From positions 1-29,510 of the forward strand of contig CAZQUK010000004.1 of assembly GCA_964596435.1 (NCBI GenBank): a DNA stretch of 29,510 nucleotides, in the 5' to 3' direction. A program made the translations under genes and the position numbers. The notes beneath the pieces were generated by a model, which saw only the letters and a program-made list of their open reading frames with translations, was not told where the DNA came from and searched no databases. The DNA comes from an uncultured Oligoflexia bacterium. Lineage in GTDB: Bacteria > Bdellovibrionota > UBA1018 > CAZQUK01. Shown piece by piece: positions 14,887 through 29,510 of the stretch (position 1 is the stretch's first letter; every line of letters starts with the position of its first letter).

Positions 14887-16698
14887 ATGTCAAACGCAAA
14901 AGATATAAATGTAATTATTGCAACTGATTGTGGCAGCACAACAACAAAGGCAATTTTAATTGAAAGAATTGGAAATGAATTTCGTCAAACTTTTCGTGGC
15001 GAGGCACCAACTACTGTTGAGGCCCCGTTTGAAGATGTTACAAAAGGTGTTCTGAATTCCATTCAGGAAGTTGAAGAACTTTCCGGGCGCAAGATGCTTG
15101 ATGGCGAAAAAATAATAATGGAAACAAGTAGTGAGAATGGTAAAAAAATTGGCGTTGATGCTTACATTTCAACAAGTAGTGCAGGTGGTGGACTTCAAAT
15201 GATGGTAGCCGGTGCTGTAAAGTCAATGACCGCAGAAAGCGCTCAGCGCGCAGCTCTAGGTGCTGGTGCAATTGTTATGGATGTTCTTGCTTCAAATGAT
15301 AAGCGCCTACCGCACCAGAAAATTGAAAGGATCCGTCAATTGCGACCGGATATGATTTTATTATCAGGTGGTACAGATGGCGGTACAATTTCACATGTTG
15401 TTGAGCTTGCAGAATATATTGCCGCCGCAGATCCAAAACCGAGACTTGGCATTAGTTATAAACTCCCAGTATTATACGCCGGAAACGTTGATGCTCGTCA
15501 GAATATTAAGGATGTTTTGCAGGAAAAAATGGAACTTGTTATCACAGATAACTTAAGACCAACACTTGAGCGCGAAAACTTCATGCCTGCCAGACAGGAA
15601 ATTCAGACACTGTTTCTGGAACACGTTATGGCGCAGGCACCTGGCTATAAAAAATTAATTGAAATGACAACAACTGACATTATGCCAACACCTGCAGCCG
15701 TTGGTCTAATTATGCAAATCATTGCAAAAAAACATGGAATAAATTTAATGGGGGTCGATATTGGCGGTGCCACAACGGACGTGTTTTCTGTTTTCGGAGA
15801 GGTTTTCAATAGAACAGTTAGCGCAAATTATGGCATGTCATACAGTATTTCAAACGTGCTTGCAGACGCAGGCCTTAAACGAGTAATGCGTTGGCTTTCT
15901 TTTGACGTTAACGAAAAGGAAGTACGCGACAGAATTAAAAATAAAATGATACGTCCAACCACTATTCCACAAACACTTGATGCACTTAAGTTAGAACAAG
16001 GAATAGCAAGAGAGGCGCTTCGTTTGTCTTTTGAACAACATAAGCTGCTTGCTGTGAGCCTTAAGGGTGTGCAACAGGAAAGAACAATTGCTGAGGCTTT
16101 TACCCAGTCAGAATCCGGTCAATCCATTGTTAACATGATGGAGCTTGATATGATTGTCGGTAGTGGTGGAGTTCTTTCGCACGCGCCAAGAAGAAACCAG
16201 TCAATGTCGATGATGATTGATTCTTTCCAACCTGAGGGCATTACATTTATTTCGGTTGATAGTATTTTTATGATGCCACATCTTGGTGTGCTTACAAATG
16301 TTAACAAACAAGCTGCAACAGAAGTATTTGAAAAAGACTGTATGGTTTATCTTGGAACCTGTGTTGCTCCTGTTGGTTCTGCAAAGTTTGGCACTAAGGT
16401 TATGGATTATAAAATTAAAATGGGACAAACCAGTATTAACGAAACTATTAATTTTGGGGAATTAAAATTTTATAATTTGAGCTTAAACGAAACTGCAGAA
16501 ATAGAACTTTGCCCAATGCGCGGATTTGATGTTGGGCGTGGAAAAGGAAAAACTCATAAAGGAGTTGTAAAGGGCGGTGTTGTTGGCCTTGTAATTGATG
16601 CCAGGGGGCGGCCAATAAAATTCCCGGATGATGAAGCGCACAGAAAAGAAAAAGTTATTGCCTGGAACAAGGAAATGAACCTTTATAGTGAATATTAA
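14887..16698 (+). CDS. glmL: GlmL/MutL (glutamate mutase L)-like ASKHA-fold ATPase with C-terminal extension
   Basis: ATDCGSTTTKA (phosphate 1), SSAGGGL, LLSGGTDGG, GVDIGGATTDVFS (phosphate 2), VGSGGVL (adenosine). Family call from motif recall; function here unknown. Confidence 0.85.
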   Translation: MSNAKDINVIIATDCGSTTTKAILIERIGNEFRQTFRGEAPTTVEAPFEDVTKGVLNSIQEVEELSGRKMLDGEKIIMETSSENGKKIGVDAYISTSSAGGGLQMMVAGAVKSMTAESAQRAALGAGAIVMDVLASNDKRLPHQKIERIRQLRPDMILLSGGTDGGTISHVVELAEYIAAADPKPRLGISYKLPVLYAGNVDARQNIKDVLQEKMELVITDNLRPTLERENFMPARQEIQTLFLEHVMAQAPGYKKLIEMTTTDIMPTPAAVGLIMQIIAKKHGINLMGVDIGGATTDVFSVFGEVFNRTVSANYGMSYSISNVLADAGLKRVMRWLSFDVNEKEVRDRIKNKMIRPTTIPQTLDALKLEQGIAREALRLSFEQHKLLAVSLKGVQQERTIAEAFTQSESGQSIVNMMELDMIVGSGGVLSHAPRRNQSMSMMIDSFQPEGITFISVDSIFMMPHLGVLTNVNKQAATEVFEKDCMVYLGTCVAPVGSAKFGTKVMDYKIKMGQTSINETINFGELKFYNLSLNETAEIELCPMRGFDVGRGKGKTHKGVVKGGVVGLVIDARGRPIKFPDDEAHRKEKVIAWNKEMNLYSEY

Positions 16699-16721
16699 AA
16701 AAATTTTTGGAGGAAACTAAA

Positions 16722-17852
16722 ATGGCACATGCCTACACACCTGGTTTAAGAGTAGCTGAAAAAACCAAGATAAAAAAATGCAGAATATTACCGCTTAAGG
16801 GCAATGTAATAAAAAAAGTTGGTGACGTGGTACTGCGCAATGATGTGGTTGCAAGAACAGAACTTCCCGGCGGAATTTCCACAATGAACGTTGTGAATAT
16901 GCTGGGTATTGTACCAAATGAGATTGATAACTTTATGCTTAAAAAGGTTGGTGAAAAAATTGAAAAAGATGAGGTTATTGCGGAAACCAAATCATTTATA
17001 AAATTTCTGCGCGCAAGGGTACAATCATCAATAACCGGGACAATTGAAGCAATCTCCCCGGTAACCGGGCAAGTACTGCTTCGCGAACCACCACTTCCGG
17101 TTGAGGTAATGGCCTACATTAACGGAAAAGTTGTTGAAGTTATAGATGGCGAGGGTGTGGAAATTGAAACAGAGGCAACTTTTATACAGGGAATTTTTGG
17201 TGTTGGTGGTGAGGTATGGGGATCAATGAAGTTTGCAGTTTCCGGCCCTGATGAGCGCTTAACTTTGGATAAATTAAAACCAGAGTTTAAGGATTCAATT
17301 GTAGTGGGTGGTTCTTTTGCTGGATTTGATGTTATAAAAAAAGCAATAGCTCTTGGAGTACGTGGCTTGATTGTATCTGGTATTCATGATGAAGATTTAA
17401 GAAAAATCCTTGGCTACGATCTAGGTGTTGCCATAACAGGTACAGAAAATATCGGATTAACACTTGTTTTAACCGAAGGGTTTGGCGAAATTACAATGGC
17501 CGAAAGGACCTACCGGACACTTAAGTCCAGAGAAGGAAGTGTTGCGTCGATTTCCGGTGCTACGCAAATCAGAGCTGGTGTGATACGGCCCGAAATAATT
17601 ATTCCATTCGATGAGGGTAAAGTACAAAAGCAGGAAAAAGATCAAAGCAAACAGCCCCATAGTATGCAAATTGGTGATCAGATTAGAGTTATTCGCGATC
17701 CTTATTTTGGAATAATTGGTAAAGTACATGCCCTGCCGTCTGAACTTAGAAAAATTGAATCAGAAACGCGGGCCAGGATTTTAGAAGTGGAATTTCCTGA
17801 CGGAAAGATTGCCGTTATTCCACGCGCAAATATAGAACTTATTGAAGAATAA
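16722..17852 (+). CDS. Conserved hypothetical partner of the GlmL-like protein: barrel-sandwich hybrid repeats, central alpha/beta domain, C-terminal KOW/SH3-like domain
   Basis: GGAGG RBS at 16709-16713 favours ATG 16722. KKVGEKIEKDEVIAE...QSSITGTIEAI resembles RnfC_N/NqrA_N; MQIGDQIRVIRDPYFGIIGKV is KOW-like. Confidence 0.8.
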   Translation: MAHAYTPGLRVAEKTKIKKCRILPLKGNVIKKVGDVVLRNDVVARTELPGGISTMNVVNMLGIVPNEIDNFMLKKVGEKIEKDEVIAETKSFIKFLRARVQSSITGTIEAISPVTGQVLLREPPLPVEVMAYINGKVVEVIDGEGVEIETEATFIQGIFGVGGEVWGSMKFAVSGPDERLTLDKLKPEFKDSIVVGGSFAGFDVIKKAIALGVRGLIVSGIHDEDLRKILGYDLGVAITGTENIGLTLVLTEGFGEITMAERTYRTLKSREGSVASISGATQIRAGVIRPEIIIPFDEGKVQKQEKDQSKQPHSMQIGDQIRVIRDPYFGIIGKVHALPSELRKIESETRARILEVEFPDGKIAVIPRANIELIEE

Positions 17853-17876: not shown

Positions 17877-18806
17877 GTGCAAAACAAAATAATATTTGAA
17901 ATAAAAAATAATTTAAGATTTTTATTATCTATAGTGCTTGTGGTTCTTTATCCGCTTTTTATAGCACTTATACAAATTGATTTTCGTGGTCTTGAGCATG
18001 CGCTGGTGCTTGCGTTTTTTTTAAGTGTACTAACATGTTTATGGCTTGTGTTTTCAGAAGTGGGGATTTTAAGAGTACTGGTGTCCATTGGTTTGGCACT
18101 TCTAGTTGTTTTTAATTATGATGCTACAGGTGCTTTAATCTCAAACTTAAAACTTGAGCACCTTGATTTGATTCTGGCAGATGTCGACAGAACGCTTTGG
18201 GGGTGGCTTTTCGCAAAAGGACAGATTTCATTTTGGTTAGATGGAAATTCCTGGTTGAATCCAAGCACTATGCCTGGAAAAATTCTTACAGAGATTTTTC
18301 AAATTGCTTATAGTAGCTATTATTTTTGGAGCCTGGGGTTGGTTTTTGCTCTTTGTGCGAAAACCTTATTTGGAGCAAAAAAGCAGGAAAGTTGGTCTGC
18401 GCTTAAACTTGTAATGAGTAGTTATTCCGTGGCTTATATTTTTAACTATATCGGATATATTTTGGTTCCTGCAGTTGGGCCAAGGCTAGTTTTTGAAAAT
18501 TATTACAAACATGCGCTTCAGGGTCTTTGGTTAACAATACCATTTAGAGAAATTATTATGAATAACCAAAGTACACTTGAGGATTGCTTTCCAAGCGGGC
18601 ACACGGCCATTAGCTGGTTAACTGCTATTATGTTTTTGCGTTTTTTTCCAAAAGTGGGCCGCATTGCGGTCGTTGCCGCAATTTTAATTACAATGGCAAC
18701 TTTGTATTTAAGGTATCACTACATTGTTGATTTAATCGCAGCCCTACCTTTAATTGTTCTGGCACTTTTGTGGGGTTTTGTGAAGGTGCCACAAATGGAT
18801 GAATAG
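17877..18806 (+). CDS. PAP2-superfamily membrane phosphatase/phosphotransferase (AUR1/IPT1-like subfamily)
   Basis: Multi-TM protein with PAVGPR, DCFPSGHT and YLRYHYIVD motifs. Confidence 0.85.
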   Translation: MQNKIIFEIKNNLRFLLSIVLVVLYPLFIALIQIDFRGLEHALVLAFFLSVLTCLWLVFSEVGILRVLVSIGLALLVVFNYDATGALISNLKLEHLDLILADVDRTLWGWLFAKGQISFWLDGNSWLNPSTMPGKILTEIFQIAYSSYYFWSLGLVFALCAKTLFGAKKQESWSALKLVMSSYSVAYIFNYIGYILVPAVGPRLVFENYYKHALQGLWLTIPFREIIMNNQSTLEDCFPSGHTAISWLTAIMFLRFFPKVGRIAVVAAILITMATLYLRYHYIVDLIAALPLIVLALLWGFVKVPQMDE

Positions 18807-18822
18807 TATTTGTTTTAGATCA

Positions 18823-19581
18823 TTACAAAAAAGTATCAATAAAAACTTTTGCGTCTTTTGGAATATTGTTTTGAAAATTTTGTGTAGTCCAGACAAAAAA
18901 TTGTTTAATTTCCTGTGTCTGTTGTGAATTTGGCTTTGTGTTAAGAATGTCAGCGCCTTGAATGTGATATGGGCTGAAATCATCATTTGTTAAATATATT
19001 TCAAGGAATTTTCGTTTTGCATTGCTTCTGATAACAAACTCATCGGTTGAAAATTCGAAATTGCATATATGGCCGTCAGCGTTTTTGCCTTTTGTATACC
19101 AGGTAATCAGTTTTGTATTATTATCACTTATATAAACCTCTTTTTTAAATCCGGCGTCGTCTTGATTAAAAAGTTTAGAAGAAAGTTTTTTTAGTGAAGA
19201 GCCTGTGATCACAGGCATTAATGTTTGAATGTAGTCTTTTTTAATGAGCCAGCTTGGAAAATATATATCAAACCCAATATCTGAAGATTTATCTTTTTTT
19301 CTTATATGTGCGCATCTGGCCTTTAAATGCAAATTATATTGTTGTAACTGCAAGGTTAAATTGGCAATAGATTCTTTGCCAAGCTCTTTTGGGTCTTTTA
19401 CATTTAACCTTAAGCCACCAATAGAAAAATCAAGTACTGAGCAGGAGTAGTTTGCGTTATTGGCAATTAGTGAAACGTTAAGCGGGTAAGTATTACATGG
19501 TTTGTAACGTATTGATTTGCGCCTCTCAAGGCTCTTGATTTCCGATTTTTCAAAATTTAGTATTTTTTTAAATAGTCCCAT
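18823..19581 (-). CDS. PilZ domain protein (c-di-GMP receptor candidate)
   Basis: RRKSIR (RxxxR) and DFSIGG (DxSxxG) motifs, followed by an uncharacterised C-terminal domain. Confidence 0.85.
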   Translation of the reverse strand: MGLFKKILNFEKSEIKSLERRKSIRYKPCNTYPLNVSLIANNANYSCSVLDFSIGGLRLNVKDPKELGKESIANLTLQLQQYNLHLKARCAHIRKKDKSSDIGFDIYFPSWLIKKDYIQTLMPVITGSSLKKLSSKLFNQDDAGFKKEVYISDNNTKLITWYTKGKNADGHICNFEFSTDEFVIRSNAKRKFLEIYLTNDDFSPYHIQGADILNTKPNSQQTQEIKQFFVWTTQNFQNNIPKDAKVFIDTFL

Positions 19582-19761: not shown

Positions 19762-20571
19762 TTAAAAATTAATTTCCCCACAACTTATAAGCCGAGCTTT
19801 TCCTGAAAGATAGGCAGCTGCTTTTGGGCCTTCCCATTCAACTATAACTTTGCCACCGGGTTGAATAACTGTGACCGGCGAAATAATATTTTTTATTAAA
19901 ATTGATGCTATGGCACTGGCACAGGCACCTGTGCCGCATGCTTTAGTGAAGCCCACACCTCTTTCCCAGGTTTCAATTGAAATAGAGTTGTTATTTAAAA
20001 CTTTTACAAAATCAATGTTTGTTTTTTTATGAAAGTTTTTGTGGTTTTCAATTATTAGAGTGCACTTTTTAAGGAAATTTGTGTTTGTTTCGTTTTCAAA
20101 AAAAACTGCATGCGGAACACCCGTATTAATAAAAACATAAGCAAATAAATTAGAATTCAGTGCAAGCGTACTTGTGATACTTTGTTTATCGTATTTTGGT
20201 TTTCCAATACCGACGCGTATTGTGTTATCAGATAACATGTCTGATTTTATACGGCCAGAAAGAGTTTCGGTAATAAATTCTTTTTTTCCTTCTACAAACT
20301 GACTAAGGTAAAGAGTGGATGCAATAATTCCATTTCCACACATTTCTGCAATTGTTCCATCGGCATTAATAATACCAAGTTTAGCGTTTGAGCCTTTGGT
20401 CTTTGGTTTTTGAAGAATTAATATCTGGTCTGCACCAACGCCATCTGTTTTGTTACAAATTGATTTTGTTACTATGGGATCAATTTTGAACGAATTTGCA
20501 AAATAAGTATTGTCAATCAAAATGAATTCGTTGCCATAAACATCAAGTTTTGTGTATTTAAGTAAAGCCAT
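19762..20571 (-). CDS. dapF: Diaminopimelate epimerase
   Basis: GNEF, GADQIL, NADGTIAEMCGNG, TGVPH and TWERGVGFTKACGTGA; both catalytic Cys present; N-terminus divergent. Confidence 0.88.
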   Translation of the reverse strand: MALLKYTKLDVYGNEFILIDNTYFANSFKIDPIVTKSICNKTDGVGADQILILQKPKTKGSNAKLGIINADGTIAEMCGNGIIASTLYLSQFVEGKKEFITETLSGRIKSDMLSDNTIRVGIGKPKYDKQSITSTLALNSNLFAYVFINTGVPHAVFFENETNTNFLKKCTLIIENHKNFHKKTNIDFVKVLNNNSISIETWERGVGFTKACGTGACASAIASILIKNIISPVTVIQPGGKVIVEWEGPKAAAYLSGKARLISCGEINF

Positions 20572-20589
20572 GAAAATCCACTTATATCC

Positions 20590-20868
20590 TTAATTTTCCA
20601 GTTCTTCAATTTTATTCAGCAGGTAGTCAACATACCTTTTGTCTTCCATGGCTTCTCTGAATGCTTGCAGTTTTTCCCCACTTATTAAAATAGTTAAAAA
20701 TGGTTCAAAAAAAAGCATGGATTGGCTGCCTAAATAATGAAGTGGCCTTGTGCTTTCTAAAAACATTACCGCAATAACAGATAAGCCTTTTTTTACGATA
20801 AAACCGGCAATTTTATCTAATATTTCAGTTTTTTTTGTATCAAGTATGTCGCACTCGGGGTTATTCAT
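20590..20868 (-). CDS. Small conserved hypothetical protein of the DUF6754-like operon
   Basis: 92 aa; FLESTRPLHYLGSQSMLFFEPF motif; overlaps upstream gene by 8 nt. Confidence 0.75.
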   Translation of the reverse strand: MNNPECDILDTKKTEILDKIAGFIVKKGLSVIAVMFLESTRPLHYLGSQSMLFFEPFLTILISGEKLQAFREAMEDKRYVDYLLNKIEELEN

Positions 20869-21265
20869 TTTTGGTCCTTGCTATTAAAAAATCATGGATT
20901 TCATTTTTAAGATTACTATTAAATATATATATGTATTCGCAAGCTTTATTGGATTTTTTAATAGGTAATATGCCGTCACTTCCAAGAGTGAAAAGCTTGT
21001 AATCAGAGTAATAAAAACATTTTTCTGTTAATAATATTTTTATTAAATAACGATCTTCAAAAAACAAATAGCGAGAAGGAACTAAAAAGTTGACAACGGG
21101 CATGGCCATCACTAAAAGTGCAATAATTGATAAAATAATTGAACCCAAAAGATATTGTGCAAGAAATGTAACAAATAAAATAACCAAAACCGAAAAAACA
21201 CCTTTTTTCCAGTAATGAGTTAAAGGAAAAGAGCTTACTTCGTAAAGTGGCACATCATCCGGCAT
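20861..21265 (-). CDS. Small 2-TM protein with C-terminal beta-rich (PH-like) soluble domain
   Basis: Two hydrophobic helices then FLVPSRYLFFEDRYLIK; coupled to neighbours; very AT-rich. Confidence 0.65.
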   Translation of the reverse strand: MPDDVPLYEVSSFPLTHYWKKGVFSVLVILFVTFLAQYLLGSIILSIIALLVMAMPVVNFLVPSRYLFFEDRYLIKILLTEKCFYYSDYKLFTLGSDGILPIKKSNKACEYIYIFNSNLKNEIHDFLIARTKNE

Positions 21266-21283: not shown

Positions 21284-21898
21284 TTAAGTAATAACACCAA
21301 GCCAGTCTTTTAATAAATACAACACCCTTCCAATTAAAAGTGAAATACGCGCCATGACTGTATAACCAAAGCTTGCACCAAAACTAATCATCAGAAGTGT
21401 TGATCCAAACTTTGTAAAATGGCCAATAACGCCTTTATGCGGTATTGAAAAATAAAAATACAAAAGACAGGCAAATGTTCCTACCAAAATAATTAAGCTG
21501 CTTAAAATGCTAAACCAGCCTCCACCAAGTGGAACGTTTACTGTTGCTTGCACCTGCGTAAGTAAATAAGTATCAATCATGGTAGGGATGCCATAACCAC
21601 TAAAACCCACAAGAAAAGCAAGTGGCCAGAAGCTTATCCAACCAAGTTTGCTTGAAAACCTAAAGAGCATTAAAATTGCTAAAATCGCCGGAATAATAAC
21701 ACTATACTCGCCCTTCGTTAAGGGTTCAAAAAGTTTTGGTAGTAGAACCTCGTTCCATGTTAAGCAAATCAAGTAACCGACAGAAATACCAATAAAGATA
21801 TGTTCCGCAAGTCTATAAAGAGGGTTTTCTTTCCAAAGGTATGTAAAAATTGCGATAGTTAATATTGCGCCTATCCAAATCCAGGGATCTGTACTCAT
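21284..21898 (-). CDS. Uncharacterised ~6-TM membrane protein with internal repeat
   Basis: 204 aa hydrophobic; KENPLYRLAEHIFIGISVGY and MISFGASFGYTVMARISLLIGR motifs; 1-nt gap to upstream gene. Confidence 0.85.
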   Translation of the reverse strand: MSTDPWIWIGAILTIAIFTYLWKENPLYRLAEHIFIGISVGYLICLTWNEVLLPKLFEPLTKGEYSVIIPAILAILMLFRFSSKLGWISFWPLAFLVGFSGYGIPTMIDTYLLTQVQATVNVPLGGGWFSILSSLIILVGTFACLLYFYFSIPHKGVIGHFTKFGSTLLMISFGASFGYTVMARISLLIGRVLYLLKDWLGVIT

Positions 21899-21899
21899 G

Positions 21900-22760
21900 T
21901 TAGAACCCCTTTCTTTCTGTTGCTTCTATATGCCTACGTATATAAAAAAGGATGTTTCCAATGACTATAAAAATAATAATTATAATGTGGCCCCAGTTTT
22001 GAGAGGCCATGCCTCGCATTGCGTTTCCAATAAAACCAGTTAAATATTCATATTCCGCGGCAGCTTTCATGCCCGCAAGAAGCCCCTTCATTTGTCCGGC
22101 CTGAAGATATGGAAAATATTCTGTTGCAGATACTGCTGTAACACCCGCAACGTAGTTAAATTTATATTTGTTAACACCATAAAGTATATATGCTTGCGCA
22201 AGTTTTGTTCCGGTAATGCATATTACAACATGAAAATCATCATAGTTTTGAATACCCTTAAGGACAGGAATATCTGCAATTGGGATCCCCCTAAAATCTT
22301 TGGGGTAGGATAATCTTAGGTCGTCCCCGAGGTTAAGTAGAACTATGTCGTATTGTGGTAGGTAGCCCAGAAAAACATAATCCTGGCCGTTAACTTTACC
22401 AAATTCTTTGGCCATATCATCCATAATGGTTGCGGCCAGAGCGGTACCGTTTGGTAAAAAAGTAAGCCCCACAACCTTTACGTTTTGCGAAAACGCTTGC
22501 CTTAACATAGCTTTTGCCATTGGTTGAAGTTCGGCTAGTGTTGAAGGGTCAAAATCAAAACCAATTAATATAGGTTTCCTTTTTTTTGCGGCCTCTTCAA
22601 CAAGTTCATAAGCTGTTTTTACCCACTTGGTTGATTTTATACTTACAACAGGTTTTAGAAAGAAAGGCAGACTAACTGCCAGGAACATGAAAATATAAAC
22701 AACCCTTCTGTCTAGGTTGATTATTTTGGTAACCAAAGAATTTGTTTTTTTATTATCCAT
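21900..22760 (-). CDS. Uncharacterised protein: TM, alpha/beta domain, TM (apparent paralog of the DUF6754-like domain)
   Basis: 286 aa; FDFDPSTLAELQPM, YVFLGY and GLLAGMKAAAEYE motifs; terminal hydrophobic helices. Confidence 0.85.
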   Translation of the reverse strand: MDNKKTNSLVTKIINLDRRVVYIFMFLAVSLPFFLKPVVSIKSTKWVKTAYELVEEAAKKRKPILIGFDFDPSTLAELQPMAKAMLRQAFSQNVKVVGLTFLPNGTALAATIMDDMAKEFGKVNGQDYVFLGYLPQYDIVLLNLGDDLRLSYPKDFRGIPIADIPVLKGIQNYDDFHVVICITGTKLAQAYILYGVNKYKFNYVAGVTAVSATEYFPYLQAGQMKGLLAGMKAAAEYEYLTGFIGNAMRGMASQNWGHIIIIIFIVIGNILFYIRRHIEATERKGF

Positions 22761-22782
22761 ATACTTTGCCTTTTTGACCTAA

Positions 22783-23418
22783 TTATTTTCCAACACCACT
22801 GAAAACTGATTTATCAATTCCAAGAATAATTTTAAGTGCCGTTGCAACCGATCCTATTGCAATACCAATAAGGATGGCTCGTTGTGCGGCAACATTAGGA
22901 TAGTCCATTATCCAAGCCGAAAATTTAGGAATCAAAGGTGATATAGTTTCTCCGAAAGGAACCTGTGCAAGCATTACGGTAATTGCAGCAAACAAGAGTA
23001 AACCTGCGGAGAAAGATTTTAACCTAAAACTTCTAAATGCGGCAGATGCGATATAAAAAGCCAGAAGTGAGAACATTGTGGATTCAAGTGGTGCCATAAC
23101 GTTCATAAAAATATCATTAAAAAGTGTTCCGGGGTTCATGCCTGTAATAAAACCAACTATTGTCATTATGGCCATAGAAATAATTGTGATTAAGCAGTAA
23201 AACCTATTTGGGTCAGCTTTGTTCATGGCTTTTTTGTAATAGGTTTTAATCATACTTATTACACCAACAGCCATTGCACCACCACCGATGATGATTAACC
23301 AATCGGAATATGTTATCCATAAAAAGTTCATGGATTTGTGTGGAACAAAATAAGCAGCAAAAGTAAAAATACCTACCACTAAGGTTATTAAAAAAGGTAC
23401 CGTCTTTTTAAAAAACAT
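22783..23418 (-). CDS. Uncharacterised ~6-TM membrane protein
   Basis: 211 aa hydrophobic; PLESTMFSLLAFYIASAAFRSFR and PNVAAQRAILIG motifs; TAATG stop/start overlap with upstream gene. Confidence 0.85.
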   Translation of the reverse strand: MFFKKTVPFLITLVVGIFTFAAYFVPHKSMNFLWITYSDWLIIIGGGAMAVGVISMIKTYYKKAMNKADPNRFYCLITIISMAIMTIVGFITGMNPGTLFNDIFMNVMAPLESTMFSLLAFYIASAAFRSFRLKSFSAGLLLFAAITVMLAQVPFGETISPLIPKFSAWIMDYPNVAAQRAILIGIAIGSVATALKIILGIDKSVFSGVGK

Positions 23419-24593
23419 TAATTAGCTCCTCCAGTTAAAAATGTATCCATACCTTCTACACCAAAAAGTTTAAGCAAGAAGCAAATAAGCAGCGCAATCA
23501 TGACCACAAGTTTTACGTAGTCTTGCCCCTTTAAGCCACCAAGCAGGCTTTTATCATCTCCCATGTAGGCTCCAGCAGCGTATAACTCCTCACCAATAAG
23601 TGTGTAGTCGCATGCAACAATAAAAAATGGTATTTGACTCACAGAATCGGTTCCTGCAATTTGTATTGCGCCTGTCATTGCACCAGATTCTGCCAAAATA
23701 AGACTTTCAGCCATAAACCAGCCAAGAAAAAAGTTTGCAGCTGGTTTTTCTCTGGCCATAAGACCCGCAACACCTGAAGCATATGCAAACTGACGGCTTG
23801 TTAGATAATATACATCATCTGCTCTATAAGCGTCAGGACGCCCCATTTTTAGGTATGAGTTTTTAACAACTTCATCAACTACTGAATAAACAATTGGGTC
23901 AAAATTTGGGATAATCATGCGTGAATTATATTCAGCAATTGTTTCAGAAACTTTTGATAAAATTGAAATTGAAGCCAGTGTTGCAATATCCGTAATTGTA
24001 CTTATTCCTGGTACAAAAATGCATGGCTTTCCCATTTCTGTTGCACGTCCAACGGCCTCCTCAATTGCTTTAACTCCGGGCAGTGGGCGGATATATAGTT
24101 TTCGTCCTGTTTTTGCTATCTGTATAAACACTAGGATTATAAACATAGAGATAAACGAAAAGACTAAAGTGAAAATTTTTGTGGAATTGAACCACTGTGG
24201 TTTGGAAACAAAAGGACCAAACTGGTTTGTCTCAAAGATTGTTTTTTCGTTTTCATCCTTAAACACAAGTTTGTAAAAGTATGGAGTTTTGTCTATTACG
24301 TCATTTTTATCTGTGTATTTATTATTTGAAATGTCGAGTCTTTTAATTTCAAGAAATTTAGTGTCGGCCGTGGTTTTGCGGAACACAAAAATATTCAGAC
24401 TTTTTTCTATTATGCTCTGATCTTCAATGTTCCATGAAATATCAATCGAAGCACCCTTGTCGTTTGGTGTGTCTTTTCCTTCAAGAGTGATTTTAGTATC
24501 CGCTCTTGAGAAAACAGAAAACAAGATCAAAAAAACCACGCCTATTAAATTAACAACTCGAAATTTATGGGATTTTTTCATGATGAAAACCAT
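23418..24593 (-). CDS. Signal peptide, Fn3-like domain, TM, DUF6754-like domain, TM
   Basis: DTPNDKGASIDISW...YFYKL (Fn3-like); IRPLPGVKAIEEAVGRATEMG and LIGEELYAAGAY. DUF number is from recall. Alternative start ATG 24581. Confidence 0.82.
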   Translation of the reverse strand: MVFIMKKSHKFRVVNLIGVVFLILFSVFSRADTKITLEGKDTPNDKGASIDISWNIEDQSIIEKSLNIFVFRKTTADTKFLEIKRLDISNNKYTDKNDVIDKTPYFYKLVFKDENEKTIFETNQFGPFVSKPQWFNSTKIFTLVFSFISMFIILVFIQIAKTGRKLYIRPLPGVKAIEEAVGRATEMGKPCIFVPGISTITDIATLASISILSKVSETIAEYNSRMIIPNFDPIVYSVVDEVVKNSYLKMGRPDAYRADDVYYLTSRQFAYASGVAGLMAREKPAANFFLGWFMAESLILAESGAMTGAIQIAGTDSVSQIPFFIVACDYTLIGEELYAAGAYMGDDKSLLGGLKGQDYVKLVVMIALLICFLLKLFGVEGMDTFLTGGAN

Positions 24594-24776: not shown

Positions 24777-25613
24777 TCAGGCCTTAATCTGATACTTGAT
24801 CCAGTTTGCGAAATCTTGTTCCCTAATTTTATCATCCAAAATGTGTTTATCTATTCCAAGTTTCCACGCAAGATCAGTGCGAGAGTGATTTTTAGCCAAA
24901 GTTTCCATGTCTTTTGAATATTGAATCAGATCTTCGCGGGTTTTAAAAAATCCCCCTTGGATTAGTTTTTCTTCGCGTGCCAAGATTAATCTGGCCATGT
25001 CGTAAAGGTTATATTCAGGATGATATTGCGTTGCCCAAAAAGTGCCTTTTTTGAATTTAATCTCAGCAGCCTGAATATATGAATGGTCATTTGACGCAAG
25101 CACTACAGAATTTGGAGGCAGTTTTGTAACTTCATCATCGTGGGACTCAAAATGGTCAAAAACTTCGGGCTTCCCTTCCATAAAAGGATGCGATTTTCCG
25201 GCGTTTGTTAAGCGTATCTTTCTTCCAATACCCATTTCGCGTCCCCTTGGGTTTATTTTAACCTCTCCTCCAGCGGCAAAAGCGGCCATTTGTAACCCCC
25301 AGCAACTGCCAATGCTTGGAATTCCAAGTTCAAAAATCTTTTTTTGTAGATCAACTTGTGCCTGAATTTCAGAAATGTGACAGTGATAAACAGTACAACT
25401 GCAACCGGTTAAAATTATGCCCGTGTAGTTTTCTAAAGCAGCACCTTCTGGAAACTTGTGGCCTGGATCCATGGGGTGAAGTACATCATATTTGGCGCCG
25501 GGTAAATATTTGGTTAAAATATCTGCATACATTTTATATGCATGCTTCACATCAAAGTTATCAAATTCATCCCGTTTGCTTTTTGGATAACCATCAATAA
25601 TTAAAAATTGCAT
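24777..25613 (-). CDS. Class I glutamine amidotransferase-like protein (standalone)
   Basis: Nucleophile elbow GSCWGLQ and QYHPE complete the Cys-His-Glu triad; AGGAG RBS favours ATG 25613 over the track start at 25649. Confidence 0.88.
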   Translation of the reverse strand: MQFLIIDGYPKSKRDEFDNFDVKHAYKMYADILTKYLPGAKYDVLHPMDPGHKFPEGAALENYTGIILTGCSCTVYHCHISEIQAQVDLQKKIFELGIPSIGSCWGLQMAAFAAGGEVKINPRGREMGIGRKIRLTNAGKSHPFMEGKPEVFDHFESHDDEVTKLPPNSVVLASNDHSYIQAAEIKFKKGTFWATQYHPEYNLYDMARLILAREEKLIQGGFFKTREDLIQYSKDMETLAKNHSRTDLAWKLGIDKHILDDKIREQDFANWIKYQIKA

Positions 25614-25626
25614 AAGCGCTCCTAAG

Positions 25627-27504
25627 TTAAATTGTCCATTCAAGTCCAAGTTCTTTTAGTTTCCCATTTGATGGGTTTCCTGACTTTATATCCCAACCCA
25701 TCAAATCATAATAATTATCGAGCATATTTAAGTATGATTCTTTATCAACTCCGCGCCCTTTTGCCGGACCATCGGGAATGGGATCGTGAATTTTATCAGG
25801 TAAAAGGTCGCTGCTTCTTGTAAAACCTCTTCTTGTATTAACTTGTCGCATAAGGTTTATGCGCCTTTCGCCAACCTTCATAAGTTCAAAAAAAGTTATT
25901 TCCATTCCAGTTGTAAAATATAAAAGGTCCTCAAGGTCCTTGTATTTAAAAAGGTTACCAGGACCCCAGCAAAACATACAAAGGCCAAGTGTATCAAGTA
26001 CACTATAAAAATATTGAGAGTAAACGGAGGCCCTGACTTTGTTAAGGTTCATGCTAGGTGCCGTATCCTGACCCAATATACCAAGACCGAAACTCGCTTC
26101 ACTTCCGCCGGCAAGGAGCCAGTCATGTTCGCATGACATATGGTCAGCACCAAACGGTACAACACCATACATTAGGGCTTGAGATGGTTTTACCTGTGGA
26201 ACATGTACCGCAAACCCGTGTCCCTTAACGTGGACCGCGTACTTTCTTGTTTTTTCTCCAAAATGATTTATTGTTTTTTCAAAACCATCGGCCAGTATGT
26301 TTCCAATGCCATCTCGGGCGCAAGTTTTTTCTATGCACCACAAAAGTCCTTTGGCGTTTGCAAATTTTACATTTTCATTTCCAATGTCTTTTGAATTTAA
26401 AATACCTTTTTCAACGCACTCACAAAGATACGAAACAAGTCCACCCATTGTTAATGTATCAATTCCGTAGTTGTTACAAAGTTCATTGGCCTTTGCAACA
26501 GCAACTGGATCCGTAATATCAAGGTTTGAACCAAGAAGTCCTAAGGTTTCAAATTCAGGTCCACCAATTTTATCTGTAACTTTGTATGGCTTTTCTGCCT
26601 TAACTTTTCTTCTGCATCCCACAATACAGGCAAAACAAGTTGTTTTTCCGGCACCCATGGTTTTCTCAACATTTTCACCATCAAGTTTTTTGTAATCTTC
26701 ATGGAAGCTTCTTGTGTAGTTGTGTGTTGCAAGATTTCCGGCTTCGCATTGGAAGCCCAAAACGCCAGGTGTTCCAAGTTTTTTTAATGTGGATGGAAAA
26801 TCAGCTCCAGGTAAACGTTCAGTAGCAAGTTTTGCAAGATTTTTAAGTCCCTCGGGATAAGCAAAATTAATTTTTTTATCTCCCTTTACTACCACGGCAC
26901 GCAGGTTTTTACTTCCAAACACAGCGCCCATTCCACAGCGTCCGGCAACATTATTTAAATCTCCCATTAGACACGCGAATCTTACCTGTTTTTCACCGGC
27001 AGGGCCACACTGAATAATACTAATGTTTTTATCGCCATGCTTATTAATTAAGGCTTCATGTGCATCAATTACACTTTTTCCATAAATATCTGAGGCGTCT
27101 TGTATTTGGACGTTTTCATTATCAACAAAAATATAAACAGGCTTTTTAGCTTTTCCTTTAATTACTATTGCATCAAATCCGGATTTTTTTATTATTGGTC
27201 CAATACTGCCGCCAAGCTGACTATCGCCAATGGCATTAGTTTCCGGCGAAACAGCTGTGACCGCACATCTACTAACGCCTGTTACAGATGCACCGGTTGT
27301 AATACCTGGTGCAATGGTAATAATGTTTTCTTCACTTAGCGGGTCAAAATTACATTTCGTTTCCTTTAATAAAAAAAAGCTCCCCATTGCCGCCCCCCCC
27401 ATATAGGTGCGGTAAAAGCTTTTATCTGGCTTTTGTATTTCTGTTTTACCTGTGCTTAAGTTTACTCTAAGAATTGCACCGTTAAATCCAAAATTCTCTG
27501 ACAT
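25627..27504 (-). CDS. aor: Aldehyde:ferredoxin oxidoreductase (tungstopterin AOR family)
   Basis: GRCGMGAVFGSKNLRAV, CFACIVGC (4Fe-4S), GPEFET, CNNYGIDT and LGLCMF; 625 aa; AGGAG RBS. Confidence 0.92.
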   Translation of the reverse strand: MSENFGFNGAILRVNLSTGKTEIQKPDKSFYRTYMGGAAMGSFFLLKETKCNFDPLSEENIITIAPGITTGASVTGVSRCAVTAVSPETNAIGDSQLGGSIGPIIKKSGFDAIVIKGKAKKPVYIFVDNENVQIQDASDIYGKSVIDAHEALINKHGDKNISIIQCGPAGEKQVRFACLMGDLNNVAGRCGMGAVFGSKNLRAVVVKGDKKINFAYPEGLKNLAKLATERLPGADFPSTLKKLGTPGVLGFQCEAGNLATHNYTRSFHEDYKKLDGENVEKTMGAGKTTCFACIVGCRRKVKAEKPYKVTDKIGGPEFETLGLLGSNLDITDPVAVAKANELCNNYGIDTLTMGGLVSYLCECVEKGILNSKDIGNENVKFANAKGLLWCIEKTCARDGIGNILADGFEKTINHFGEKTRKYAVHVKGHGFAVHVPQVKPSQALMYGVVPFGADHMSCEHDWLLAGGSEASFGLGILGQDTAPSMNLNKVRASVYSQYFYSVLDTLGLCMFCWGPGNLFKYKDLEDLLYFTTGMEITFFELMKVGERRINLMRQVNTRRGFTRSSDLLPDKIHDPIPDGPAKGRGVDKESYLNMLDNYYDLMGWDIKSGNPSNGKLKELGLEWTI

Positions 27505-27505
27505 T

Positions 27506-28681
27506 TTATTCTCCTTTGTACGCTTCCCTGTAAAGATTTAATAAGTCTTCTTTTGTACAGGGCCTGGCGTTTGTGAGATGACATGGATCATTGAAAGCCT
27601 TTTTTGCAAGTTCCTCAAGCTGGTTTTCTTTCACCCCTGCTTCTTTTAATGATTTTGGGATGCCAATGCTTTCATTTAATTTTACTACGGCCTCTATGGT
27701 TTTTTCGGCGGCCTCAATTACTGTAAGATTTGAAGTGCCTATCCCAAAACAGTTTGCCACTTTTTTGTATTGCCTAGCCGCAACTTCCATATTGTATTTC
27801 ATCACCGGTACAAGGCAAATTGCATTTGCAAGACCATGTTGAATATTGCATAAGGTGGAAAGTGGGTGCGCCATAGAATGAACGGCCCCAAGATCTTTTT
27901 GAAAAGCCACGGCCCCCATCATTGCGGCAAGAAGCATATAACCTCTAGCTTCAAGATCGTTTGGTTTGCAAACGGCAGTTTTTAAATACTTTGCACAATA
28001 CTCAATACCTATAAGAGCAATACCATCGCACATTGGATGAAAAACAGGAGCCGTTAACGATTCAATGTTATGTGTAAATGCATCCATACCCGTGGCTGCG
28101 GTTAGTGCCGGCGGGAGCGATACTGTCAACTCCGGATCAAGTACGGCAATCTTTGGCATTAGGTGAGGAGAGCAGACAAAAAACTTTTTTCCTTCTCTTG
28201 GAGAAGTTAAAACAGAGCACCTTCCAACTTCACTTCCCGTTCCCGCCGTTGTTGGTATTGAAATCATTGATGGTATGGGACCCTTAATAAGTTTCCCGCC
28301 ACCTTGCATAACATCATAACGGTTAATTGGTTCACCGTGGGCAATTAAAACAGGAACAACCTTTGCGGCATCAAGCGCACTACCACCACCAAGACCTATT
28401 ACACCATCACATTTGTTTTCCTTATAAATTGCGGCGGCCTTATGAGTATCCTCATCAAGCGGATTTGGATTCACTTCAGAAAAAACAGCAAACTGTGTGC
28501 CCGAAGATTTCAGAACATTTTCAACTTTTTTATATGTTTCAGTTTTTCTTAAGCCAGGATCAGTAACTAAAAGGGGCTTTTTTATATTCACTTCATTTAA
28601 GTATTCAGCGAGATTATCTATTGCCCCAGTACCAAATACTATTGTTGTTGGAAAAGAAAATCTTGTAATTTCGTGCGCCAT
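27506..28681 (-). CDS. Iron-containing alcohol dehydrogenase
   Basis: GGGSALD, TTAGTGSE, DAFTHNIES, HSMAH and HGLANA metal/NAD motifs; AAGGAG RBS. Confidence 0.93.
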   Translation of the reverse strand: MAHEITRFSFPTTIVFGTGAIDNLAEYLNEVNIKKPLLVTDPGLRKTETYKKVENVLKSSGTQFAVFSEVNPNPLDEDTHKAAAIYKENKCDGVIGLGGGSALDAAKVVPVLIAHGEPINRYDVMQGGGKLIKGPIPSMISIPTTAGTGSEVGRCSVLTSPREGKKFFVCSPHLMPKIAVLDPELTVSLPPALTAATGMDAFTHNIESLTAPVFHPMCDGIALIGIEYCAKYLKTAVCKPNDLEARGYMLLAAMMGAVAFQKDLGAVHSMAHPLSTLCNIQHGLANAICLVPVMKYNMEVAARQYKKVANCFGIGTSNLTVIEAAEKTIEAVVKLNESIGIPKSLKEAGVKENQLEELAKKAFNDPCHLTNARPCTKEDLLNLYREAYKGE

Positions 28682-28693
28682 ATCTCTACTCCT

Positions 28694-29410
28694 TTATTTA
28701 TTATTTGTTATATTTAATTTATTAATTATTGATGCAAGATCCTTATAGTTTGTACAAATTGCATCAGCTTTTGTATTTTTACTACCTCTGTCTTTTATGA
28801 CAGTTGTTAAAATTGCTTTTGACCCAACAATATGAGGGCCTTCAATATCTTTTTCTTCCCTGTCACCAACATGAATGAGCTCTGTTAATTCAATTTTAAG
28901 CTTTTTTACAATGGTTTCAAAAACAAGCGGGTTTGGTTTTGAACAGCCGATTTCGTCAGAAAAGACAAAAGCTTCAAAGTATTTTAATAAATCTTTTGAG
29001 GCTAAAATTTCCTTAAGCACTCGTCCTGGGCTGAATATTGCATCTGAAATTCCCTCGGCAAAGTCAGGTTGTATGTTGAGTTCCATTTCTTCATGAAGTT
29101 TTACAAGTTCATTAAAATCATTATCGGGAATTTTGCGGTTTAGTTTTTTAAAAAGCACGAGTAATCTTTCGTTAACGGTCCAGGTAATACCTTTTTCGTA
29201 CCAGGCGCGTCTGAACTCAGCGTCCGTGGCGTTATAAGCCTCATTTACTTTTTCTGGTGATATAGTGGCGCTTTTTTTGAGAAAATCTAAAACCAGTTTT
29301 CTTCTTTCTTCTTTTTTTGGAAGAAGCCCCATAGATTTTCTTTTGGGTTCATCAGAGTCATCTATAAAAACTGTGTCCCAAAGATCAAAAGAAACTGCTT
29401 TAATGGCCAT
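28694..29410 (-). CDS. HAD-superfamily hydrolase (apparently with an in-frame internal deletion)
   Basis: FDLWDT (motif I), ISD (II), SKP (III), HVGDREEKD (IV); ATG 29410 is likelier than TTG 29428. Confidence 0.8.
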   Translation of the reverse strand: MAIKAVSFDLWDTVFIDDSDEPKRKSMGLLPKKEERRKLVLDFLKKSATISPEKVNEAYNATDAEFRRAWYEKGITWTVNERLLVLFKKLNRKIPDNDFNELVKLHEEMELNIQPDFAEGISDAIFSPGRVLKEILASKDLLKYFEAFVFSDEIGCSKPNPLVFETIVKKLKIELTELIHVGDREEKDIEGPHIVGSKAILTTVIKDRGSKNTKADAICTNYKDLASIINKLNITNNK

Positions 29411-29510
29411 AGTAAAATTTTGCCCCAAGCTTGGGTTCCTTACAAATACATAAAAATAAAACTGCCCTACAAGTGAGCGTAAGCTGACAAAATTAGGCAG
29501 GTAATTTTAG

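Follow-up and report, generated by a model that had tools for sequence, protein, structure and literature searches.

Can two membrane proteins encoded in one operon be ancient duplicates that insert into the membrane in opposite orientations, and if so, in what kind of assembly do they take part? The question is raised by a stretch of 29,510 nucleotides (nt) from an uncultured Oligoflexia bacterium (contig CAZQUK010000004.1), the whole of which is referred to here as the window; coordinates given without a locus name are forward-strand positions of this full stretch. On its minus strand, six closely packed genes, named A, B, C, D, E, and F, run from 24593 to 20590. A reading made from the DNA letters alone had proposed that the 391-amino acid (aa) product of gene A and the 286-aa product of gene C are paralogs, each having a domain held between two transmembrane (TM) helices, and that the two domains lie on opposite sides of the membrane. 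Both open reading frames (ORFs) are present (24593..23418 and 22760..21900, minus strand), the six strings quoted from them in support of the alignment are located at residues 312–324, 337–344, and 352–370 of A and residues 204–216, 231–238, and 249–267 of C, and the charge features of both proteins are as that reading described them. The interpretation developed below, which we consider to have somewhat better than an even chance of being correct, is that A and C are subunits of a membrane unit A-B-C-D, that they are ancient duplicates of which one was flipped, and that they belong to a module with an actin-fold ATPase.

Fold and sequence comparison of subunits A and C

Subunit A (23418..24593, minus strand) is a member of the DUF6754 family (PF20539), as evidenced by a match at E 1e-108 over residues 131–383 (362.8 bits; family cut-off, 27); when the PF20539 model was run over the source genome, A was the sole match. 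The ORF call, the family match and a model from AlphaFold2 (AF2) together delineate five parts, all on the minus strand. Residues 1–31 (24501..24593) form a signal peptide with a basic n-region, a hydrophobic core at residues 11–29 (hydropathy 2.24) and a following S-R-A. Residues 33–130 (24204..24497) constitute an Fn3/Ig-like β-sandwich, predicted to be periplasmic, in which eight strands were modeled at a predicted local distance difference test (pLDDT) of 85–93 and which matched Fn3 folds; the homologs of A carry the database name "fibronectin type III domain-containing." TM helix 1 (residues 137–161; 24111..24185) is predicted to run out-to-in, the very conserved DUF6754 α/β domain (residues 165–345; 23559..24101) is predicted to be cytoplasmic, and TM helix 2 (residues 348–378; 23460..23552) is followed by an acidic tail that contains neither Lys nor Arg and is predicted to be outside. 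The AF2 model (pLDDT 79) displayed, in order, a leader helix, the eight-stranded β-sandwich, TM helix 137–161, a further helix, at least five β-α units and, at the C-terminal end, a long TM helix (348–376 in the model). Among 42 sequences that are 42–70% identical, the predicted cytoplasmic domain has 55 invariant columns, many of them charged. Conservation in DUF6754 peaks at residues 294–328 (23610–23714, minus strand), which hardly vary and are in part hydrophobic. No other part of the domain was modeled poorly by AF2 (pLDDT 41–46 here); these residues may form an interface, or dip into the membrane, and take up their fold only when the complex is assembled.

Subunit C (21900..22760, minus strand) was modeled by AF2 from its family alignment at a pLDDT of 94.4 and a predicted TM-score (pTM; template modeling score) of 0.86. 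The model begins with a short N-terminal helix and TM helix 1 (residues 18–38, with the modeled helix at 18–35; 22647..22709), which is predicted to run in-to-out and is preceded by a conserved basic I-D-R-R motif. A helix and six β-α units forming a Rossmann-like sheet follow, the six-stranded α/β domain comprising residues 41–245 (22026..22640) and being predicted periplasmic. The chain ends in a long helix at residues 246–283 (21912..22025) that includes TM helix 2 (core 256–275) and leads into a basic tail, predicted to be cytoplasmic. At E ≤ 0.001 the C family comprises 5250 cluster representatives. One genome per species was scanned, and the best 80 loci were examined (locus counts given in this article are over 81 or 82 loci); the family was located in at least 597 species belonging to many phyla, most of them uncultured, with anammox bacteria and predatory Bdellovibrionota among the carriers. 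Only 12 columns are invariant in C versus the 55 in A, and the conserved motifs of the two proteins differ. Some relatives of C (P0252, P0390, P0339, and P0259) accept big insertions in the middle of the domain, either CARDB, HEAT repeats of ~300 residues, or repeated stretches of the domain itself. No Pfam family matched C at E ≤ 0.1, and the PF20539 model missed it at any usable threshold. C thus lies outside DUF6754 by that family's own model, although it is likewise built as TM-domain-TM and DUF6754 ranks as the closest fold outside its own family.

The latter statement is based on searches with the C model. The ESM Atlas returned the family of C itself first, and then DUF6754 clusters at TM-scores of 0.63/0.68 (231 residues, root mean square deviation 3.7 Å) and 0.56, with generic Rossmann folds at 0.45 or below. 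Foldseek against the AFDB clusters listed eleven entries at E 3.7e-8 to 5.5e-6 and TM-scores of 0.50–0.57, the alignments spanning TM helix 1 to TM helix 2, before the first unrelated fold appeared at E 5.4e-4. These eleven entries are genuine relatives of A, since they are 29–52% identical to it and are the same entries that top the search made with the A model. Attempts to name the fold by Foldseek against the PDB and by VIA-align against 48,161 chains yielded only generic Rossmann-like matches. Three-layer domains of this class, such as MT0777 (1kjn), the RCK/KTN domains of K+ channels (1id1, 3l4b) and the Moco carrier protein (2iz7), scored at the level of a common arrangement; unlike these, the domain of C is predicted to be periplasmic and sits between two TM helices. 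On reading the sequences, the GxGxxG nucleotide loop after strand 1 is absent from both A and C.

The amino acid sequences gave a different picture. The three blocks that had been aligned by eye contain 5/13, 3/8, and 4/19 identities, and this alignment proved no better than chance: the local score of the C-terminal parts was 32, versus 25.4 ± 4.5 for shuffled sequences (p ~0.10), and p was 0.14 when the TM helix was left out. A shuffle test over the whole module yielded p 0.0055. We discount this value, since BLASTP gave just one match of comparable strength (E 0.13), and that match is non-collinear. Comparison of the two families by hhalign, which the sequence-only reading had named as a check, gave E 0.006–0.64 and a probability of at most 6% in all settings, whether 42 sequences per family or 96 and 106 sequences from 82 loci were used, with or without AF2-derived secondary structure, and in local, permissive (low-mact) and global modes. 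The best of these matches paired TM with TM helix or fell in the N-terminal half, and never involved the quoted blocks. Cross-searches with hidden Markov models reached about 8 bits at most, barely over reversed-sequence controls; neither family profile picked up the other gene in the source genome; and the language-model features of the ESM Atlas gave no cross-recognition between A and C in either direction. When the A model served as the query for fold searches, the C family was absent from the rows listed, which were filled by the A family and Fn3 folds, and the poor modeling of residues 294–328 makes the fold comparison lean on DUF6754 models made by others. All of these results, the non-collinear BLASTP match included, weigh against a common origin of the two proteins. 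A similar hhalign comparison of B and D, as a candidate second inverted pair, gave E 0.011 and a probability of 4%.

Judged from the models, the membrane module of A and subunit C share architecture and fold, and they appear to be each other's nearest known structural neighbors; to this extent they agree with the proposed paralogy, whereas no similarity at the level of sequence accompanies it. Common descent is the most economical reading because A and C are always encoded together, and we hold it to be fairly probable. The resemblance could instead be generic, with A and C being unrelated proteins that each possess a common Rossmann-like domain and that face opposite sides since the complex needs one such domain per face. 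The uniformly negative sequence tests and language-model features, the very common fold class and the dissimilar conservation patterns are all in keeping with this idea. However, DUF6754 is the nearest neighbor of C in two independent libraries, through a match that extends over the domain and its two flanking TM helices and that beats generic Rossmann folds by roughly 100-fold in E-value and ~0.1–0.2 in TM-score; every complete locus, moreover, has A and C together in one cassette. We regard a generic resemblance as possible but rather unlikely.

Membrane orientation of the two domains

The orientation of A and C was assessed by counting Lys and Arg residues (K+R) in the 15 residues on each side of every TM helix in all homologs. 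For C, the mean count was 3.60 before and 1.54 after TM helix 1, with 89 of 105 homologs so biased and none in the opposite sense, and 1.86 before and 4.00 after TM helix 2 (92 of 106 homologs). For A the pattern is reversed, with 1.99 before and 4.02 after TM helix 1 (78 of 92 homologs) and 1.97 before and 0.67 after TM helix 2 (80 of 96). Summed as termini minus domain side, the bias of C is +4.21 (positive in 103 of 105 homologs, negative in none) and that of A is −3.34 (negative in 87 of 92). A smaller set of homologs gave the same opposite biases.

Features outside the helices point the same way. The domain of A is predicted to be cytoplasmic because a signal peptide and an Fn3-like domain lead the protein; among A homologs with an N-terminal region, which adds up to 788 residues, 73 of 82 have a hydrophobic leader. 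In the case of C, 14 of 22 long relatives carry an N-terminal double zinc ribbon (PF13240/PF12773). The 11 that were inspected have four CxxC motifs within the first 55 residues, and no signal peptide or hydrophobic segment was seen in the 190–520 residues ahead of their first TM helix; such an N-terminus is not exportable, and therefore TM helix 1 of the C module would run in-to-out and place the domain outside. In two relatives of C a CARDB cell-adhesion domain is inserted within the α/β domain. The HEAT-repeat insert of one relative was also considered as a side marker and was rejected, as it says nothing on the face occupied by the domain.

A further marker comes from subunit B (211 aa; 22783..23418, minus strand), which has six TM helices, is predicted N-in and matches no family. 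In a planctomycetotal locus (L052:1255-2598, plus strand) B is 447 aa long and holds a C-like domain devoid of TM helices (E 3e-19 to C residues 69–198), inserted at about position 98 to 103 of B, in loop 3; a normal C gene comes next. Loop 3 is predicted to face outward because of the distribution of K+R over the loops of B, the values being 2.0, 4.4, 3.0, and 3.1 for the loops of one face (12.5 in sum, inside) and 1.4, 0.7, and 2.4 for those of the opposite face (4.5 in sum, outside). The insertion suggests that a periplasmic C-type domain works beside B, perhaps as a domain pair. The loop charges of D were ambiguous with regard to orientation.

Charge bias, the leader and Fn3-like domain of A, and the zinc-ribbon, CARDB and B-loop relatives of C are thus in agreement with the opposite orientation that had been proposed, and we predict with high confidence that A and C are inserted in opposite senses. 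Two points have to be set on the other side of the balance. All topology statements made here are predictions, and the zinc-ribbon branch of C occurs in another gene context, at least at the one locus P0400, where no DUF6754 gene is called within ~6 kb on either side. At that locus the zinc-ribbon gene follows genes of 550 and 210 aa, and no D gene is called over the same distance. The branch (P0397–P0410) may represent a reduced version of the system or another form of it; ESM Atlas clusters with such an architecture are mostly from Chloroflexota.

The A-B-C-D cassette and its ATPase module

The gene context over the examined loci places A and C in a four-subunit membrane unit within a larger module and not in a free-standing dimer. 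The stop of A and the start of B overlap by one base, D (204 aa; 21284..21898, minus strand) begins one base after C and has about six TM helices, and E and F overlap by 8 nt. E (20861..21265, minus strand) is a small membrane protein of 134 aa that adjoins the module in seven loci. F (20590..20868, minus strand) is a small protein of 92 aa with 25 relatives in the 82 loci, where 22 adjacent F-G pairs occur. None of B, C, D, E, and F matched Pfam or NCBIfam (for B, C, and D at E ≤ 0.1), and the ESM Atlas provided no named family for B; B and D are each 45% identical to their counterparts in the distant locus L001. On the plus strand, G (603 aa; 14887..16698) is a GlmL/MutL-like actin-fold (ASKHA) ATPase, as evidenced by a PF13941 match at E 7.6e-128, and H (381 aa; 16707..17852) is its partner, with a weak match to the RnfC_N barrel-sandwich domain (PF13375, E 7e-4) that is below the family cut-off. 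With A-B-C-D, F, G, and H all present, the window contains the full "GlmL/MutL-ATPase membrane module," which is a working name rather than that of a published family. Whole-genome profile searches located a single A-B-C-D cassette in the source genome (a 90% complete draft), and the nearest relatives are from Oligoflexia/Bdellovibrionales metagenome genomes. Our literature searches found no paper on DUF6754 or on the module, and those made with PF13941, GlmL and membrane complex as subjects gave nothing relevant.

Of 81 loci, which come from many phyla, 70 have a complete cassette in the order A-B-C-D and most of the others are cut by contig ends; the median gaps between the cassette genes are 12, 1, and 1.5 nt. 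The canonical arrangement is (E)-F-G-H-A-B-C-D: G-H is directly upstream of the cassette in 23 of 81 loci, H and A are adjacent in 27, and F precedes the ATPase gene in most loci with a full module. In the window, and likewise in L003 and L005 from related Bdellovibrionota, G-H lies downstream of the cassette on the other strand and is convergent with it, which points to a lineage-specific rearrangement when set against the one-strand order of the 23 loci from other phyla. Two or three cassettes stand in tandem in 13 loci (three each in L011, L068, and L074; two each in L012, L024, L051, L057, L069, L071, and others), with at most one ATPase set nearby, so that the cassettes look like interchangeable membrane units on one shared motor. 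Single subunits are duplicated as well: C-C was seen in four cases (A-B-C-C-D) and A-A in two (A-A-B-C-D). The two C copies of L001 (6001-7666) are 74% identical, L078 has several copies of C, and L007 is in the same list of duplications; the A-A cases are L061 and L062, which are Cloacimonadota-like loci.

These data bear on the model put forward in the sequence-only reading, in which A and C form a direct antiparallel, pseudo-symmetric heterodimer that makes up the central part of a path for ions or solutes. Inverted-topology pairs of paralogs are known from RnfA/RnfE and NqrD/NqrE (PF02508), the RnfA/RnfE pair being inverted, and from the paired SMR proteins; these are polytopic proteins that lack a soluble domain, retain recognizable sequence similarity and form direct antiparallel dimers. 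A and C are like them in being operon neighbors with related predicted structures and reversed K+R bias, but are unlike them in being two-helix hairpins that each bear a domain of ~200 residues and that have no detectable sequence similarity. The shared fold, the opposite charge bias and the constant association of the genes would all suit a heterodimer, and the sub-cut-off RnfC_N match of H recalls Rnf/Nqr. However, B lies between the two genes and D is always present, and with about six helices each these are the likelier candidates for a membrane path; copy numbers depart from 1:1 in several loci, a poor fit to a strict mirror pair; and database searches gave no match to a transporter, an ion pump or Rnf/Nqr, with PF02508 found in none of A, B, C, and D (A matched PF20539 only in Pfam and NCBIfam, and B, C, and D nothing at E ≤ 0.1). 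We therefore consider such a heterodimer improbable. Least plausible of the alternatives is that the domain of C is cytoplasmic like that of A and that the long loop of the hairpin distorts the positive-inside signal: charge bias does predict less well around long loops, and HEAT repeats, often cytoplasmic, are inserted in one relative of C, but the bias agrees on both helices and in both families in ~90% or more of ~100 homologs each, and the zinc-ribbon N-termini, the CARDB insert and the insertion in the outward loop of B fit a periplasmic domain.

Several other genes surround the module in the window. A diaminopimelate epimerase gene (19762-20571, minus strand) begins 18 nt past F and is followed by a PilZ-domain gene (18823-19581, minus strand); this neighborhood is probably a local accident because neither gene adjoins the module in the other loci examined. 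A gene for a membrane phosphatase of the PAP2 superfamily (17877-18806, plus strand) is directly 3′ of G-H. Upstream of A there is a separate operon (24777-29428, minus strand) consisting of a class-I glutamine amidotransferase-like gene (PF00117) followed by ORFs of 625, 391, and 244 aa, for which the guess made from the letters alone was a tungsten-type aldehyde:ferredoxin oxidoreductase, an iron alcohol dehydrogenase and a HAD protein.

A possible mechanism and its meaning

If A and C are indeed subunits of one membrane unit and ancient duplicates, their sequence similarity would have decayed since the duplication, and the simplest route to a flipped hairpin would be the gain of an N-terminal signal peptide. 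C would begin in the cytoplasm and so display its domain in the periplasm, while the domain of A would lie in the cytoplasm. There, the highly conserved domain of A may be the docking site of ATPase G, whose conservation is equally high, and its partner H, a suggestion that we make with low confidence. With equal reserve, we envisage that a membrane body of 16 helices (two from A, six from B, two from C, and six from D) would pass an ATP-driven movement to the periplasmic domain of C and the Fn3-like domain of A. A four-chain complex prediction (A residues 131–391, B, and D, with C as partner) gave a score of 0.62 for C, versus 0.73 for a control in which A was replaced, and so speaks neither for nor against binding between A and C.

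Such a transfer of movement would resemble, in principle, the mechanotransmission of MacB/FtsEX-type systems and would not require a simple antiparallel pore made of A and C. MacB, FtsEX, and LolCDE combine a cytoplasmic ATPase with a membrane protein whose periplasmic domain sits between two helices, and the likeness here is that G-H adjoin A-B-C-D. It is a functional analogy only: the ATPase of the module has an actin fold (PF13941) and is not an ABC protein, and there is no relation in sequence or fold. A role for the ATPase in moving the complex is a low-confidence proposal. We also entertain a more far-reaching version, in which one hairpin-plus-domain subunit was duplicated, one copy was flipped by a signal peptide, and both domains recognize one kind of ligand or partner and hand it, or a conformational signal, across the membrane with power from the actin-fold ATPase; this version is speculative, and we think it doubtful.

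Related proteins that insert in opposite orientations are a classic clue to the evolution of pseudo-symmetric transporters. To our knowledge, the well-known pairs are all small polytopic proteins without soluble domains, whereas here two look-alike subunits would display a whole domain of ~200 residues on both faces of the membrane. Should the doubtful version with duplication, flipping and handover nevertheless be true, the module would be an envelope transporter or transducer driven by ATP and of a new class, unrelated to the ABC, P-type, Sec, and Ton/Mot systems. The predicted sidedness of the two domains provides a guide to where the docking site of the ATPase and the periplasmic partner should be sought.

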